Positions 3,887 to 27,925 of a stretch of DNA of 59,997 nt are shown piece by piece (positions within the stretch are counted from its first letter, which is position 1; each line of letters starts with the position of its first letter). The position numbers and the translations under genes are program-made. Source of the DNA: a virus; IMG/VR virus record IMGVR_UViG_3300029535_000005, positions 1 to 59,997 of that record. One strand, 5' to 3'. The notes beneath the pieces were generated by a model. The model did not search any database. It was not told the DNA's origin and was given only the letters and a program-made list of their open reading frames with translations.

Positions 3887-4601
3887 AGTTTTAGGTTCTG
3901 GTTCATCCGGTAATTGCTACATGCTGGAGAATGACAAGGAAGCTTTGATAATCGAAGCCGGGTTGCCTTTTATGGAAGTCAAGAAAGCACTGGATTTCAA
4001 TGTGATGAAAATTAAGGCTGTGATTACTACCCATTTCCATACTGACCATAGTCTTTATAGCTTACAATATGTGCAAGCTGGCATTCCTGTTTTTGAACCA
4101 TGCAGACCGCCGATAAAAGATTCTGAAATGCGTTTTAGAAAAGGAAATTTTGACATAAGAGCATTTGAAAATCGTGATAAATCTGGAAGATGGCTACATA
4201 ACAACGGAGACGGTTCAGAGTGTCCGTGCGTTGGGTTTTACATTACGCATCCAGAGATGGGAAGTCTTGTGTATGCAACAGACACGGAATACGTCAGATG
4301 GCGATTTAATGGTGTTAATCACATCATGGTGGAAGCCAACTACGATATGCAGTTTGTGAACCGAGAAGAACCAAATTACGAGCACAGATTAAGAGGTCAT
4401 ATGAGTTTACTAACGGCACTTGACTTTATTTCTACTAACGATAATCCGGCATTGCGAAATGTCGTTCTAATTCACTTATCAGATAAAAGCGGAGATCCCG
4501 CACTATTCAAACAAAAGACAGAAGAAACAGTTAAATATGGATCAGATGTTTACGTGGCGGAACGTGGATTAGAGGTTGATATGAACCTTTACCCGTTTTA
4601 A
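3876..4601 (+). CDS. MBL-fold metallo-hydrolase
   Basis: MRLKVLGSGSSGNCY N-terminus and the HxHxDH motif (HFHTDH). ATG 3876 lies 11 nt after AGGAG; the track's GTG 3864 is less likely. Confidence 0.85.
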   Translation: MRLKVLGSGSSGNCYMLENDKEALIIEAGLPFMEVKKALDFNVMKIKAVITTHFHTDHSLYSLQYVQAGIPVFEPCRPPIKDSEMRFRKGNFDIRAFENRDKSGRWLHNNGDGSECPCVGFYITHPEMGSLVYATDTEYVRWRFNGVNHIMVEANYDMQFVNREEPNYEHRLRGHMSLLTALDFISTNDNPALRNVVLIHLSDKSGDPALFKQKTEETVKYGSDVYVAERGLEVDMNLYPF

Positions 4602-18134: not shown

Positions 18135-18182
18135 TTGAGTTCTTTTTGAGTTCCTTTTGAGTTCCTCTTGATTTGAACTCAA
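18135..18182 (+). promoter_or_regulatory. Phased repeat cluster: TTGAGTTC three times at 11-bp spacing, plus one inverted copy
   Basis: TTGAGTTC occurs at 18135, 18146 and 18157. GAACTCAA occurs at 18175-18182. Confidence 0.7.
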
Positions 18183-18234
18183 AACACACTCGAAAGAATG
18201 TGATTATGTCTGCTTTGCAGAATTATGAACACAA

Positions 18235-18261
18235 GGGCAGGCTATAAGACCTGCCCTTTTT
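18235..18261 (+). terminator. Intrinsic terminator or attenuator just upstream of the next RBS
   Basis: GGGCAGG-CTATAAGA-CCTGCCC followed by TTTTT. Confidence 0.7.
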
Positions 18262-18281
18262 ATGATTGGAGGTAAAACATT

Positions 18282-21721: not shown

Positions 21722-21925
21722 CGCGCAATGCATATGCTTTGTGTCAACAAGTATAAACAAAAAAGAGCACAGATCGCCAGACAATACCCAAGTGAGATAA
21801 TGACGATATGCATATTGCGTGCATTTTATCTCTTTGTACGCTTTTTTGCGCGCTGTACTCCACGGTATATGGATAAAAGCAAGCCGGGAAAATTGCCCCC
21901 GGAACATTGCACCGCCTGCACTTGC

Positions 21926-22102
21926 TTAAATGATAACACCCAATCGCATACAATCCATTTTCCGATCACAAAGGGCGCGCCACTTTTCGGGATCCCCTTT
22001 GATGTTTTCGGCAGTTCTGGTTTCCGCCCATTCGTTCCGCGCTTTAATGTATGCGCTTTTTGCGTCGTCTTTTTTTGTTTGTAAGTTTCCCATAAATCCC
22101 AT
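21926..22102 (-). CDS. Hypothetical 58-aa protein (third cassette gene)
   Basis: AAGGATGG RBS followed by ATG. Sequence MGFMGNLQTKKDDAKSAYIKARNEWAETRTAENIKGDPEKWRALCDRKMDCMRLGVII. Preferred over the overlapping track ORF 21826..22113. Confidence 0.6.
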   Translation of the reverse strand: MGFMGNLQTKKDDAKSAYIKARNEWAETRTAENIKGDPEKWRALCDRKMDCMRLGVII

Positions 22103-22131
22103 AATTTAACCATCCTTTCATTGTGCGCCCT

Positions 22132-22189
22132 GTCTCATCGGTGCAGGTGGGGCAGTTCCTGCAGACGGTGGACACTCCACCGTTTCGAC
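22132..22189 (-). ncRNA. Hammerhead-ribozyme-like motif C (type II permutation; core variant CCGAUGA)
   Basis: The minus strand reads GTC-GAA-A[CGGTGGA-GTG-TCCACCG]T-C / [TGCAGG-AACTGCCCCA-CCTGCA]-CCGATGA-GAC. Confidence 0.6.
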
Positions 22190-22416
22190 TATTTTTCGCC
22201 GTATAGTTTGGTTGATTTTCTAAAGGTCTTAATCACTCCGCCCGGCGTCCCGTCTTTCTTTGTCCTCCAGTGTGCCGGAAAGCTCGAAAAGTCAGAGCAG
22301 AGACGAACCGTTATTGTTTTTTCCGTCTCCCTTACGATTTCTGCCACATCAAAAAGAAAACCGTCTGATTCTGCTAACTTTGTGCCCACTTTTATTTCGC
22401 TTGCTTTGATAATCAT
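22189..22416 (-). CDS. Hypothetical 75-aa protein (second cassette gene)
   Basis: RBS AAAGGAGG upstream of the ATG. The TAG stop abuts the GAAAC of motif C. Confidence 0.65.
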   Translation of the reverse strand: MIIKASEIKVGTKLAESDGFLFDVAEIVRETEKTITVRLCSDFSSFPAHWRTKKDGTPGGVIKTFRKSTKLYGEK

Positions 22417-22441
22417 GTGTAAACCTCCTTTATGAGTGCTT

Positions 22442-22499
22442 GTCTCATCAGTGGCAAGGTTGCAACCCTACACCAGACCGCCGCTCGGGCGGTTTCGAC
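22442..22499 (-). ncRNA. Hammerhead-ribozyme-like motif B (type II permutation; canonical CUGAUGA and GAAA cores)
   Basis: The minus strand reads GTC-GAA-A[CCGCC-CGAGC-GGCGG]T-C / [TGGTG..GGT-TGCA-ACC..GCCA]-CTGATGA-GAC. Confidence 0.75.
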
Positions 22500-22885
22500 T
22501 ATTCGCAAATTTTTCGAAAGATGTCTATTGTAAGATTTGCAGCGGCTCTTTTTTTATCCGAAACGTAGCCGCGGCGCTTGCTTTTCAAGGCTTTTTCTGC
22601 CTGCTTAATATTTCCAATTCCCCAGTTTCCGGCTTTTTCAAGTTTTTCCCATTCTTCCGGCGAAACCTTTATAGCTTTAAGCGTTTTCGGGTTAATGCTA
22701 AAGCAGTTACTGTCTTCTGGGTGCAAAAGCTGACACAGTGGAATATATTCATGTGTTCCCATGTTATCGCCGATATTCCAGACAAAAAATCCTTTCGGAA
22801 TTTTTGTGACAATCTCAAAAACATCTGTTTTACCAATTGATGTAGTGGTATAAATTTTATTGTTTTCAATTCTTAAATTTTCCAT
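22499..22885 (-). CDS. Hypothetical 128-aa protein (first cassette gene)
   Basis: ATG preceded by AGAAAGGGAT. The TAG stop abuts the GAAAC of motif B. Confidence 0.7.
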   Translation of the reverse strand: MENLRIENNKIYTTTSIGKTDVFEIVTKIPKGFFVWNIGDNMGTHEYIPLCQLLHPEDSNCFSINPKTLKAIKVSPEEWEKLEKAGNWGIGNIKQAEKALKSKRRGYVSDKKRAAANLTIDIFRKICE

Positions 22886-22903
22886 AGAATCCCTTTCTGG
22901 TCT

Positions 22904-22962
22904 GCCATCATCAGAGCCGGGAGACCATCCCGCGGCTTACGGTCATTTCTGACCGTTTCGGC
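22904..22962 (-). ncRNA. Hammerhead-ribozyme-like motif A (type II permutation; GUA cleavage triplet; extra U before stem II)
   Basis: The minus strand reads GCC-GAA-A[CGGTCA-GAAA-TGACCG]T-A / [AGCCGCGGGA-TGGTC-TCCCGGCT]-CTGATGA-T-GGC. It lies in the 5' leader of the cassette. Confidence 0.65.
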
Positions 22963-23036
22963 TTTTTTATCTATGTTCGATATAAAAACGCTTTCTTGTC
23001 CTCCTGGAATAATATTTTTGTTTTCCTGTTGGTATT

Positions 23037-23127
23037 ATAATATCACTTTTTTTAGTTATAGTCAATATGAAATATCACTTTTTTAAGAAATATTTTTCTT
23101 GACTTTTCCAACGTGTAAATATATGAT
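23037..23127. promoter_or_regulatory. Divergent promoter region with two ATATCACTTTTTT repeats
   Basis: Minus strand: TTGACT (23060-23065), 17 nt, TATTAT (23037-23042). Plus strand: TTGACT (23099-23104), 17 nt, TATGAT (23122-23127). Repeats at 23040-23052 and 23072-23084. Confidence 0.55.
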
Positions 23128-26044: not shown

Positions 26045-26055
26045 ATTGTTTGCAT

Positions 26056-26127
26056 TGCTCGTTTGCCAAATGGTAAGGCACTGGGTTTTGATCCCAGCAT
26101 TTATCGGTTCGAGTCCGGTACGGGCAG
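26056..26127 (+). tRNA. tRNA-Gln (anticodon TTG)
   Basis: Hand-folded cloverleaf: TGCTCGT/ACGGGCA acceptor, GCC..GGC D-stem, CTGGG-TTTTGAT-CCCAG anticodon arm, ATCGG-TTCGAGT-CCGGT T-arm, discriminator G. No encoded CCA. Confidence 0.85.
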
Positions 26128-26148
26128 TTTTGAAAATGGAGGTAAATC

Positions 26149-26307
26149 ATGTTGATTTTAAAAACAGTCATAACAACATTTGATGCCCTTGCGATTTTGA
26201 CGTTTTTCTTGCTTGGAAGAGATGGCAGCAACGAAAAGGACGCTGTGGCAGTCTGGGGATCACTTATTGCATTGTTTCTTATCAATATATTTGCAATGTG
26301 GAGATGA
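26149..26307 (+). CDS. Small two-TM membrane protein (52 aa)
   Basis: GGAGGT RBS 6 nt upstream of the ATG, with hydrophobic segments. Confidence 0.5.
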   Translation: MLILKTVITTFDALAILTFFLLGRDGSNEKDAVAVWGSLIALFLINIFAMWR

Positions 26308-26605
26308 TGATATGGTTTTGTATGACCCGATATTTGGTATTCGCTTCCTGCCGGAAATTTTAACTACGGTCGGAAGAATACATATAAGCAGAAAAAAACA
26401 TACGGGAGAAACCGACGTTCTGGATCTTGACAGTGACGCTGAGCACCAGTCTGAGAAGTCGGAGCATCCAGTATAGCTTAAGTCCACTGGCATTCGGTTT
26501 TTGCAAGAAAAAACTCGGCGTAAGCAATTATTCGGTGTTAGTGGACGTCGGCAAAATAAAAAGATCAAAAATACTATCATAAACGGCGCGCTATGCGCGC
26601 TGTGA

Positions 26606-26694
26606 CGGAACGTAGTTCAGAGGAAAGAACAATCTTTTTATTCTTCCATGCTCTAGTGAATTGATAGCCGCAGGTTCAAGTCCTGCCGTTCCGA
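26606..26694 (+). ncRNA. Non-canonical tRNA-like element. Acceptor, D-arm and T-arm are present, but there is no foldable anticodon arm.
   Basis: CGGAACG/CGTTCCG acceptor, GTTC-AGAGGAAA-GAAC D-arm, GCAGG-TTCAAGT-CCTGC T-arm. The 39-nt middle segment does not form a 5-bp stem with a 7-nt loop. Confidence 0.4.
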
Positions 26695-27351
26695 TTGAGA
26701 AATAGGTTTAAAGCTTATCTCGGAATACGAAAAGTTCGTATTTCTCCTTTCGCTACTAGGAAGTTTCTGTTAAGGACGGTGCGAGACCGTCCGGTGGCGT
26801 TTGCCGCGGAGTGCGGCAAGGCGGAAGACCGCTTGGTGTTGGATAATGGTTGTCCCGTAATTTGCTGACGAGCAATACAGGCGGATTCCTATTGATAGTT
26901 CGGGTGCCTATCCCACGGTGCCTGAGCTGTCAAAAATACAATTAGGCTGTGGCGGAAAAAGGTAGACGCTTAAGCATAAGACAACCACGCTTTGGTTAGG
27001 AACAAGTCATTGAATTAACAAGGCAATGAAGGAACCTGTTAAGGGTGTTACCCGTTGTGGAAAGTCGTTGTTATGTGAGGTGCAAATCCTCACCAGCCTA
27101 TTTCCCGTGATATCGCACAGGATAGTGCAACGCATGGCACGAAAAATATGATTGCTAACCGTCTGATGGCGGTTCTCGTGGATGGCAAGAAAGGTATTTG
27201 CCGGAGTAAGACGCTTCGTGAAACTGATAGTCGAAAGGTTTCAAGTGCAAGGTTCAAGTCCTTGCTCCACGATGGTGCCGAGCTGATTTGATACTGTATG
27301 CGTAGCGCGCGGTCGCGTACAGAGATATGGAGTGAGGTGTCCGCGCATTTT
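26695..27351 (+). ncRNA. Candidate large structured ncRNA region containing two further tRNA-like modules (26944-27099 and 27176-27272)
   Basis: No credible ORF on either strand. Many GC-rich hairpins: GGACGG/CCGTCC 26774-26791, TTGCCGC/GCGGCAA 26801-26819, TTGCT-GACG-AGCAA 26862-26875, CTGTATGCG/CGCGTACAG 27293-27321. T-arm-like GTGAGG-TGCAAAT-CCTCAC and GCAAGG-TTCAAGT-CCTTGC. Confidence 0.45.
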
Positions 27352-27441
27352 GGGGAAGCGGCAACGATTGGAGGTGTTGCGGCTGACTGTAAATCAGTTC
27401 CCAAGTGGTAAACAATAGAGGTTCGATTCCTCTCTTCCCTA
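27352..27441 (+). tRNA. tRNA-Tyr (anticodon GTA), class II with a long variable arm
   Basis: GGGGAAG/CTTCCCT acceptor, GCTGA-CTGTAAA-TCAGT anticodon arm, AGAGG-TTCGATT-CCTCT T-arm, discriminator A. Confidence 0.75.
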
Positions 27442-27531
27442 TTTCACTCAACTCCCTAAAAACACTGTTTGGCAGGTGCGTGGTAGACAGTTGTAATGGA
27501 TGGGTTGTTTAAGAAATCGCACCATCAAGAT

Positions 27532-27616
27532 GCAGTGTTCCCATAATGGAATTGGAGCCGGTTGCTATCCGGTCGGGCGTTTATTCGCCTTGTAGGTTCG
27601 AGTCCTACACACTGCG
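27532..27616 (+). tRNA. tRNA-Ser (anticodon GCT), class II
   Basis: GCAGTGT/ACACTGC acceptor, GCCGG-TTGCTAT-CCGGT anticodon arm, GGCG..CGCC variable stem, GTAGG-TTCGAGT-CCTAC T-arm, discriminator G. Confidence 0.75.
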
Positions 27617-27731
27617 CTAACTTACGACAGGGATGAACCTTGCCGTAAGCGGTAGAAAGTCCGTGTGAAATTGTACAAAGTGGTGGCAAAAGCAATTTCG
27701 GATATAGCAGTTCCACCACACTGCTATATTT

Positions 27732-27815
27732 GCCGTATGTCCGGGTGGTGAGGGGGGGCGGTCTTGAAAACCGTTGGCTGTAAAAGGCTTGCAGGTTCAA
27801 ATCCTGTGTACGGCG
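27732..27815 (+). tRNA. tRNA-Ser (anticodon TGA), class II
   Basis: GCCGTAT/GTACGGC acceptor, GCGGT-CTTGAAA-ACCGT anticodon arm, GCAGG-TTCAAAT-CCTGT T-arm, discriminator G. The D-arm pairing is weak. Confidence 0.65.
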
Positions 27816-27925
27816 TTTGATTGAAAAAAAATCGAGCGTTAATGTGTGACGGAAAATGAACCGGAAATGATAGAAGTAACAACTTTGGAAGATTGTGAAC
27901 CTAGGTTTATGAGGAAGTGATTGAA

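Follow-up and report, generated by a model that had tools for sequence, protein, structure and literature searches.

Three hammerhead ribozymes punctuate a small three-gene cassette on the minus strand of a viral DNA stretch of 59,997 nucleotides (nt), which corresponds to positions 1 to 59,997 of the IMG/VR record IMGVR_UViG_3300029535_000005 and is called the window here. As judged from their sequence, the three elements (copies A, C and B in the order of transcription) are genuine type II hammerheads, in which stem II is open and stems I and III are capped. One of them precedes each of the open reading frames (ORFs) g1, g2 and g5, and each, about 70 nt long, fills the gap between a stop codon and the next Shine-Dalgarno (SD) sequence. 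The assignment to type II is based on Rfam, on an independent covariance model, on compensatory changes in related phages, and on a covarying pseudoknot between loop I and the 3' tail. We propose that the cassette transcript probably cleaves itself cotranscriptionally to hairpin-capped monocistronic mRNAs, by which each ORF would be insulated and swappable.

The first-pass annotation of this DNA had described a common architecture upstream of the three ORFs, consisting of a 3-nt strand, GAAA, a hairpin, U-H, a second hairpin, C(U/C)GAUGA and a complementary 3-nt strand, and had read it as a type II hammerhead. We found this architecture before all three ORFs, and the predicted cleavage sites are where they had been placed, with A22938 as H17 in copy A, C22476 in copy C and C22164 in copy B. 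Its caveats were accurate as well: stem II comprises 3 bp, copy B carries a U4-to-C change, and copy A has an extra U after A9. The core of copies A and C is canonical (CUGAUGA, GAA, an A-U pair closing stem III, and A or C as H17), and so is the core of copy B (CCGAUGA) apart from position 4.

A search with the Rfam models, which had also been suggested, matched all three copies to Hammerhead_II (RF02276), but only copy A exceeded the gathering score of 37 (56.4 bits; E value of 5e-9 for the whole window). Copies B and C, with 28.9 and 25.8 bits and E values of 0.002 and 0.015 within 1.6 kb, were recovered by a permissive search and by custom models. The independent covariance model, R2, was built from 55 viral sequences after exclusion of the window itself and of all sequences with its stem types. 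This model assigned 61.3 bits to copy B, 52.4 to copy C and 48.6 to copy A (E values of 1e-15 to 5e-12), and the next-best match in the 60-kb window reached 10.6 bits. A custom covariance model scored copy C at 59.5 bits and copy B at 66.5 bits. The window contains exactly three hammerheads, all located within 1.07 kb on the minus strand; further hammerheads or other ribozyme classes, twister included, were not found in it.

Related loci (54 in total) were retrieved from IMG/VR via the 128-aa and 75-aa proteins encoded by g1 and g2, and in 47 of them two or three of these hammerhead types are present, invariably on the gene strand. Copy A combines a GCC/GGC stem II, with the U bulged after A9, with a CGGUCA/UGACCG stem III and an AGCCG/CGGCU stem I, and its predicted cut falls between 22938 and 22937. 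By comparing loop I with the 3' tail, we found in addition a 5-bp pseudoknot (GGUCU in loop I with AGACC in the tail), a feature absent from the first-pass annotation. The minimum free energy (MFE) fold of copy A calculated with RNAfold is the hammerhead fold (z score of -2.7). In the relatives, stem III, stem I and the pseudoknot of this copy covary, and the extra U between A9 and stem II is retained in all of the A type.

Copy C has a GUC/GAC stem II, a CCGCC/GGCGG stem III, and a stem I made of UGGUG/UGCCA plus AGG/CCU with a bulged U; its potential pseudoknot comprises 3 bp only (UGC/GCA). This copy is retained in relatives with U.G to C-G changes, and the type C stem I and tail are kept in many phages. 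Copy B has the same stem II (GUC/GAC), a CGGUGGA/UCCACCG stem III, a UGCAGG/CCUGCA stem I and a 5-bp pseudoknot of UGCCC with GGGCG, in which one pair appears as U.G, C-G or U-A among relatives. The B-type core carries C4 in 23 of 33 related copies and U4 in the other 10. In the relative L014, a compensatory double change in stem I (TGTAGG/CCTACA) is present on a C4 background, and therefore the B structure is still under selection. According to RNAfold, stems III and I form in all three copies, and stem II forms additionally in copy A. The loop I/3' tail pseudoknot is critical for fast cleavage, and U4C is a natural variant that lowers the in vitro activity considerably and still supports the infectivity of viroids (PMC3088659). 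Copy A probably cleaves fast, and copies C and B probably cleave more slowly.

Selection on the structure was also seen far beyond these relatives. A pattern search of IMG/VR, with the catalytic core and stem II fixed and both hairpins left free, gave at least 120 loci, and 146 unique matches were listed. In the matches listed, the length of stems III and I is about 6.5 bp each, compared to 1.8 and 0.7 bp after shuffling, and H17 is a C in 143 of the 146. Covariation was analyzed in a 68-sequence alignment, in which 87.8% of the cells pair, a value inflated for stems I and III since the rows were picked for at least 5 bp in these helices. In this alignment, 303 cells are changed on both sides, compared to 83 +/- 7 after shuffling (none of 500 shuffles reached 303), and the covariation score is 0.58 versus 0.08 to 0.12 for slid registers. 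Row selection had no effect on the pseudoknot, and the unselected 146 matches listed point the same way. A loop I/3' tail pseudoknot of at least 5 bp is present in 52% of the matches listed, versus about 12% with swapped tails, and 59 distinct helices are represented. We conclude that stems I and III and the pseudoknot are under selection as RNA structure.

The position of the ribozymes between genes is equally regular. In 79.5% of the 146 matches listed, an ORF of at least 45 codons ends 0 to 8 nt before stem II, compared to 4.5% at random positions. Stop-to-stem II offsets of 0 to -4 were found in 43, 20, 16, 17 and 11 cases, respectively, among these matches, and the last base of the stop codon is the first base of stem II in 43 of the 146 listed. 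In line with this, the first-pass annotation had noted that the stop codons in the window lie at stem II; indeed, the TAG codons of the 128-aa and 75-aa ORFs overlap its first base. On the other side, an SD sequence and a start codon follow 3' of stem II at a median distance of 26 nt in 78% of the 146 matches listed, and across the class the SD sits approximately 15 to 20 nt 3' of the pseudoknot. In approximately 38 of 100 unrelated viral loci, at least two copies share a strand. The arrays detected in unrelated viral contigs comprise up to 8 to 9 type II hammerheads, spaced 250 to 650 nt apart on one strand within about 3 kb. Large arrays of this kind are located in L090 (8157-11327), L091 (2150-5085) and L059 (6221-9597), where very small genes are each bracketed by ribozymes. 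Rfam confirms several of the L090 copies.

Comparison of the approximately 50 relatives showed how the linkers and the genes are combined. Three constant linkers, each running from stop codon through ribozyme and SD to ATG, flank small genes from more than 25 unrelated families. The similarity between phages spans the stop codon, the ribozyme, the pseudoknot tail and the SD, and stops at the next ATG. Linker B is followed by 12 unrelated gene families, all 12 of which start with the ATG at the g5 position, and the type C stem III is preceded by 10 unrelated families. The middle slot is occupied by the 75-aa g2 or by an unrelated 79-aa gene (g4), and it is empty in some relatives. In the latter case, a hybrid ribozyme composed of stem III of C and stem I of B, joined exactly at the shared GUC/UG boundary, is located 3' of the 128-aa gene. 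The hybrid is no proof of exchange exactly at the cleavage site, since ordinary recombination between linker-carrying donors would give the same product. The gene combination of the window was found nowhere else in the set. Homogenization or hyperconservation of the linkers relative to the genes found no support, since nucleotide identity is 0.83 to 0.96 in the linkers versus 0.95 to 0.97 in the neighboring ORFs.

The first-pass annotation had presented copy A as a leader element. This is correct for the window, but the position is secondary, because in relatives copy A is intercistronic, with a gene ending just upstream of it. Alignment with the relative L011 (positions 2700 to 2925) showed that the stretch from just 3' of GGAGG to ACAAGAAAGCG is missing in the window. 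The deletion removed a 55-aa gene (g3 of the relatives) between the SD and hammerhead A, leaving its last codons only (...RKRFYIEHR); copy A has therefore ended up in the leader.

A further relative is Dulem virus 39 (PP511791.1, our locus L184), a complete 59.8-kb phage from the lemur gut, the terminase of which is 80% identical to that of the window phage. It carries the same counter-oriented small-gene cassette and, in intergenic gaps on the minus strand, two type II hammerheads (51 to 53 bits; L184 positions 1493-1563 and 1979-2045). The A-type pseudoknot of this phage is fully changed yet complementary (UAGCC/GGCUA). Its GenBank record has no RNA annotation at either hammerhead. In a prophage of Clostridium sp. 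CAG:510 (FR880834.1; L178 positions 3921-3992), the A-type element reads AUGAUGA, a C3-to-A change in the core with otherwise intact stems. This copy is probably inactivated.

Based on these data, the following course of events would be expected. RNA polymerase would complete each element of about 65 nt, which would then fold and be cut at the predicted site 3' of H17. With stems I and III closed by loops and a stem II of only 3 bp, the products would fall apart. In addition to a leader of about 93 nt, these would be three mRNAs of about 462, 312 and 290 nt, each of them monocistronic. The 5'-OH of each mRNA would sit immediately at the stem I hairpin, which the pseudoknot would often lock, and each upstream product would end approximately 22 nt past the stop codon in the stem III hairpin, predicted to have a 1-nt overhang, with a 2',3'-cyclic phosphate. 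Stem-loops at the 5' terminus protect RNAs from RNase J in Firmicutes, as hairpins at the 3' end do from exonucleases. In a host with RNases J and Y and 3' exonucleases, the capped ends would thus uncouple the stability and translation of each gene from its neighbors and from the leader, and the ORFs would become context-independent, swappable units.

Several observations weigh against this proposal. Copies B (28.9 bits) and C (25.8 bits) score under the Rfam gathering score of 37 and have unremarkable thermodynamic z scores. Furthermore, the U4-to-C change of copy B is a variant of reduced activity in vitro, and the pseudoknot of copy C is limited to 3 bp, while a published construct lost activity 20- to 100-fold when its pseudoknot was shortened (PMC3088659). 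Homologues of g1 with 58% identity or less lack flanking hammerheads; g1-type genes therefore do not need the ribozymes, and an obligatory association of the two was ruled out. Moreover, the predicted unpaired probability of the ribosome binding site (RBS) is the same before and after cleavage (0.44/0.51, 0.59/0.58 and 0.54/0.56), and RBS unmasking was thus rejected. Any benefit must therefore come from the end structure or from uncoupling, as we infer from general knowledge of RNA decay. The low scores and the weak points of the two copies, together with the core decay documented in L178 and an alternative GUCG/CGAU pairing that is used in the MFE fold of copy B and is strengthened by U4-to-C, could also mean that one or more copies, most likely B or C, are dead relics and that the operon is only partly processed. 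However, C4 is present in 23 of the 33 related copies, ahead of many different downstream genes and with intact stems, and the compensatory stem I change in L014 is found on this background; U4C still supports viroid infectivity (PMC3088659), and many phages have kept the stem I and the tail of type C. We regard the relic explanation as conceivable, if on the unlikely side. The close abutment of stop codon and ribozyme raises a different question, namely, whether cleavage is gated by translation, as the first-pass annotation had suggested: a terminating ribosome would cover stem II, the GAA and the start of stem III, and folding and processing would depend on ribosome traffic. Gating agrees with the strong skew of the stop-to-stem II distance to 0 to 4 nt in the 146 matches listed (79.5% within 8 nt versus 4.5%) and with the TAG overlap at both intercistronic copies of the window, but simple compaction of the stop-to-start linker predicts the same pattern. 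Moreover, folding needs about 55 nt more of transcript, so that the ribozyme would be free most of the time between ribosomes, and no ORF precedes copy A in the window phage. Gating is physically plausible but appears rather improbable to us.

The exchange of ORFs between constant linkers also allows an explanation at the DNA level, according to which the linkers act mainly as homology blocks of about 100 bp for ordered ORF exchange, with RNA cleavage being secondary or incidental. The homology indeed covers the stretch from the stop codon to the next ATG and is bordered by unrelated ORFs on either side (12 and 10 families); the 75-aa gene is found in only some of the relatives, and a hybrid ribozyme sits at the junction where it is missing; and the differing stems of the three linkers would preserve the slot order and prevent deletions. 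Nevertheless, the compensatory changes in stems and pseudoknot reveal selection on RNA structure beyond DNA identity, the linkers are no more conserved than the ORFs, and any conserved intergenic sequence would be equally good for recombination. We doubt that this is their principal role; such a function is compatible with self-cleavage, and the two may well coexist. Cleavage could also be followed by ligation. An RNA excised between two sites would hold the 3' half of one ribozyme and the 5' half of the next, their stem II strands being compatible; its ends could re-form a hammerhead, and either RtcB or a reversal of the cleavage reaction could then link them to give circular or spliced RNAs. 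Such products are topologically possible: linkers C and B do share their cores and stem II (GUC/GAC), A and C are compatible with one wobble, and the genomic hybrid ribozyme joins exactly at the shared GUC/UG boundary. However, spliced or circular products were sought in comparable arrays and none was found (PMC3088659), the hybrid is explicable by recombination between donors already carrying linkers, and no reverse transcriptase is present; we consider ligation very improbable. An extended version, in which the stretch from cleavage site to cleavage site, made up of stem I, core, SD, ORF, stop codon, core and stem III, would be the unit of both RNA excision and genetic exchange, with a chimeric hammerhead keeping the 5'-OH beside the 2',3'-cyclic phosphate, with circular, exonuclease-resistant mRNAs and with ribosome traffic at the stop codon tuning the balance between cutting and joining, is a speculation to which we attach hardly any weight. 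Thus, we favor self-cleavage to hairpin-capped monocistronic mRNAs.

Table 1. Features of the cassette and its surroundings in the 59,997-nt window.
Feature	Coordinates	Strand	Remarks
SNF2-related domain fused to N6/N4 DNA methylase, 837 aa	11052-13565	+	Upstream of the cassette region
Tyrosine integrase, 400 aa	14818-16020	+	Upstream of the cassette region
Intrinsic terminator	21874-21925 (hairpin 21902-21884)	-	CCGGGGGCAAUUUUCCCGG inside GCAAG...CUUGC, then U-run
g5, 58 aa	22102-21926	-	ORF; SD AAAGGAUGG, then ATG
Hammerhead B, type II	22191-22122	-	Core CCGAUGA (U4 to C); g2 TAG overlaps stem II
g2, 75 aa	22416-22189	-	ORF
Hammerhead C, type II	22501-22432	-	Core CUGAUGA; g1 TAG overlaps stem II
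g1, 128 aa	22885-22499	-	ORF
Hammerhead A, type II	22964-22894	-	Core CUGAUGA; Rfam and R2
5' leader	22965-23030	-	SD and last codons of the deleted upstream gene (g3 of relatives)
Sigma-70-type promoter, TTGACT-17-TATTAT	23065-23037	-	Predicted; 10/12 matches; upstream TG (extended -10)
AAAAAGTGATATT, 13 nt, two exact copies	23071-23083 and 23039-23051	-	Flank the -35, overlap the -10
Cro/C1-type helix-turn-helix (HTH) gene, 79 aa	23165-23404	+	PF13443 HTH_26, E value of 2.3e-6; divergent from the cassette

The window belongs to a temperate tailed phage and carries genes for an integrase, an SNF2-methylase, a large terminase and an SPP1-type portal; the host of this phage is a member of the gut Clostridia. 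Nearly all window genes are on the plus strand, and the cassette is a small counter-oriented module of accessory genes (Table 1). Positions 23065 to 21874 of the minus strand form a single compact unit of promoter, leader, three ORFs and terminator, and transcription is inferred to start at about 23030. The start codon of g5 was fixed because the linker with its SD AAAGGAUGG followed by ATG is conserved. The terminator has a 7-bp stem with 5 G-C pairs and a T-rich tail, and the same element is located 3' of the cassette in the relative L175, where an integrase gene also follows the cassette. Since there is one promoter and one terminator, and internal terminators were not found on the minus strand of the cassette, the latter is a single transcription unit. 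A terminator-like hit on the plus strand (22163-22185) was discarded; it consists of the antisense of the copy B stem III followed by GTTTCGACTATTTT and probably arises from the GAAAC core as a by-product.

The promoter and its overlap with a repeat had been pointed out by the first-pass annotation; we found the repeat, AAAAAGTGATATT, twice at the promoter and nowhere else as an exact copy in the whole window. The two copies are probably operators for the divergently encoded HTH protein of 79 aa, which would make this protein the probable regulator of the cassette promoter and the cassette probably repressor controlled. A Cro/C1-type HTH neighbor is also present in L175 and in Dulem virus 39. 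In L011 (positions 2300 to 2700), a different repeat, TTTTGTGCCTTGTAT, occupies the same promoter position in about five copies. Differing operator-like repeats in otherwise similar phages suggest different immunity specificities on one cassette scaffold.

The products of the cassette genes gave little indication of their function. The g1 family comprises 745 homologues, none of them named. Homologues of g1 are present in genomes of Lachnospiraceae, Oscillospiraceae and other Clostridia; those with 59 to 72% identity keep the flanking hammerheads. No significant Pfam or PHROG match was obtained for g1, g2 or g5, and ten further cassette families had no Pfam match either (0 of 13 families with a domain in total). 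Sequence searches of the PDB gave no match for the three window proteins, and the moderately confident AlphaFold model of g1 (predicted local distance difference test score of 77) had no fold match in the PDB (best E value of 0.2; template modeling score of <0.3). An anti-defense role of the cassette proteins, based on the type of locus, is only a guess.

Elsewhere in the window, five phage transfer RNA (tRNA) genes are clustered at 26055-27816 on the plus strand. One of them (26606-26694, plus strand) measures 89 nt, of which about 22 are additional nt in the region of the anticodon, and was classified by ARAGORN as Lys(CTT) with an oddly placed anticodon; the extra stretch holds CUCUAGU and could provide a CUA (amber suppressor) anticodon loop. 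At 18166-18263 on the minus strand, the Rfam Termite-leu RNA was matched weakly (28.4 bits, gathering score of 51, E value of 0.045), probably by chance.

Clustered hammerheads flanking single genes were previously described in prophages of Clostridium scindens and Azorhizobium caulinodans and at ardA of Agrobacterium tumefaciens (PMC3088659). Three such tandem arrangements were cleaved in vitro and one was cleaved in vivo; the transcripts, of about 2 kb, were cut both in vitro and in Escherichia coli, and processing into gene-length mRNAs was proposed (PMC3088659). A review from 2019 repeats this proposal, calls for more work, and leaves the purpose of hundreds of phage and bacterial hammerheads open (PMC6765202). 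The statement of the first-pass annotation that hammerheads are known in prophages while their role is unknown agrees with this literature (PMC3088659, PMC6765202), and the literature searched yielded no functional study of phage type II arrays of a later date. Thus, the arrangement was already described and its cleavage was shown in 2011 (PMC3088659), and the window adds no new kind of element.

The likeness to the elements of Perreault et al. 2011 is extensive: there, several same-strand hammerheads within 1 to 2 kb bracket variable small genes in prophages with an integrase, they belong to type II, have a stem II of 2 to 3 bp and form a pseudoknot between loop I and the 3' tail, and one example is from gut Clostridia. 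Here, three copies in 1.07 kb bracket g1 and g2 and precede g5, integrase, terminase and SPP1-type portal genes are present in the window, and homologous cassettes are found in Clostridia genomes. Unlike in that study, where cleavage was shown, it is predicted from sequence here, and the sequences and genes are others. Three type II hammerheads of Desulfovibrio vulgaris were found to be active in cells by cyPhyRNA-seq (PMC8782182); they are likewise near hypothetical and phage-like genes, but they are located at separate loci and not in one operon, and the host belongs to a different phylum. Compared to the RF02276 family, the core, the topology and the position of the pseudoknot directly 3' of stem II are the same, and copy A is above the gathering score. 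Copies B and C differ from the family by their scores below it, by the U4-to-C change of B, by the long bulged stem I and weak pseudoknot of C, and by their local 3-bp GUC/GAC stem II.

Ribozyme insulators of the RiboJ type and engineered operon processing reportedly go back to Lou et al. 2012 and Qi et al. 2012 and make use of type III hammerheads (sTRSV-derived) or Csy4 sites. RiboJ cuts away the RNA that precedes it, so that the new 5' end carries a hairpin and the downstream gene is expressed independently of its upstream surroundings, and the window elements probably work likewise. Unlike RiboJ, they are natural, belong to type II and would cap both products, so the likeness is one of function and not of membership. 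Hammerheads of fungal RNA viruses also fill a short intergenic gap before an ORF and separate a translatable RNA (bioRxiv 10.1101/2024.05.16.594327). In contrast to the window elements, which are from a DNA phage with SD-dependent initiation, they are of type I and are linked to cap-independent translation. Twister ribozymes, the fold of which is unrelated, are found in the same kinds of phage gene neighborhoods (PMC6765202). A twister-P5 element (53.5 bits; gathering score of 37.6) was detected in the 178-kb viral contig L052 at 1079-1143 on the plus strand, 1.9 kb upstream of a homologue of the 75-aa protein; hammerheads were not found in this contig. The location of this twister fits the known sharing of neighborhoods by twister and hammerhead ribozymes.

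What this analysis adds is the extent of the linker from stop codon to ATG, the abutment of the stop codon, the spacing of the SD, the frequency of arrays, and the slot-wise exchange of ORFs in one phage lineage. Public phage records, such as that of Dulem virus 39, omit such ribozymes. With three ribozymes of graded predicted quality (one canonical, one with a weak pseudoknot, and one with U4 to C) and about 50 natural variants, the locus is a compact test case. In summary, the class-wide regularities turn the "processing of polycistronic transcripts" into concrete, testable predictions.

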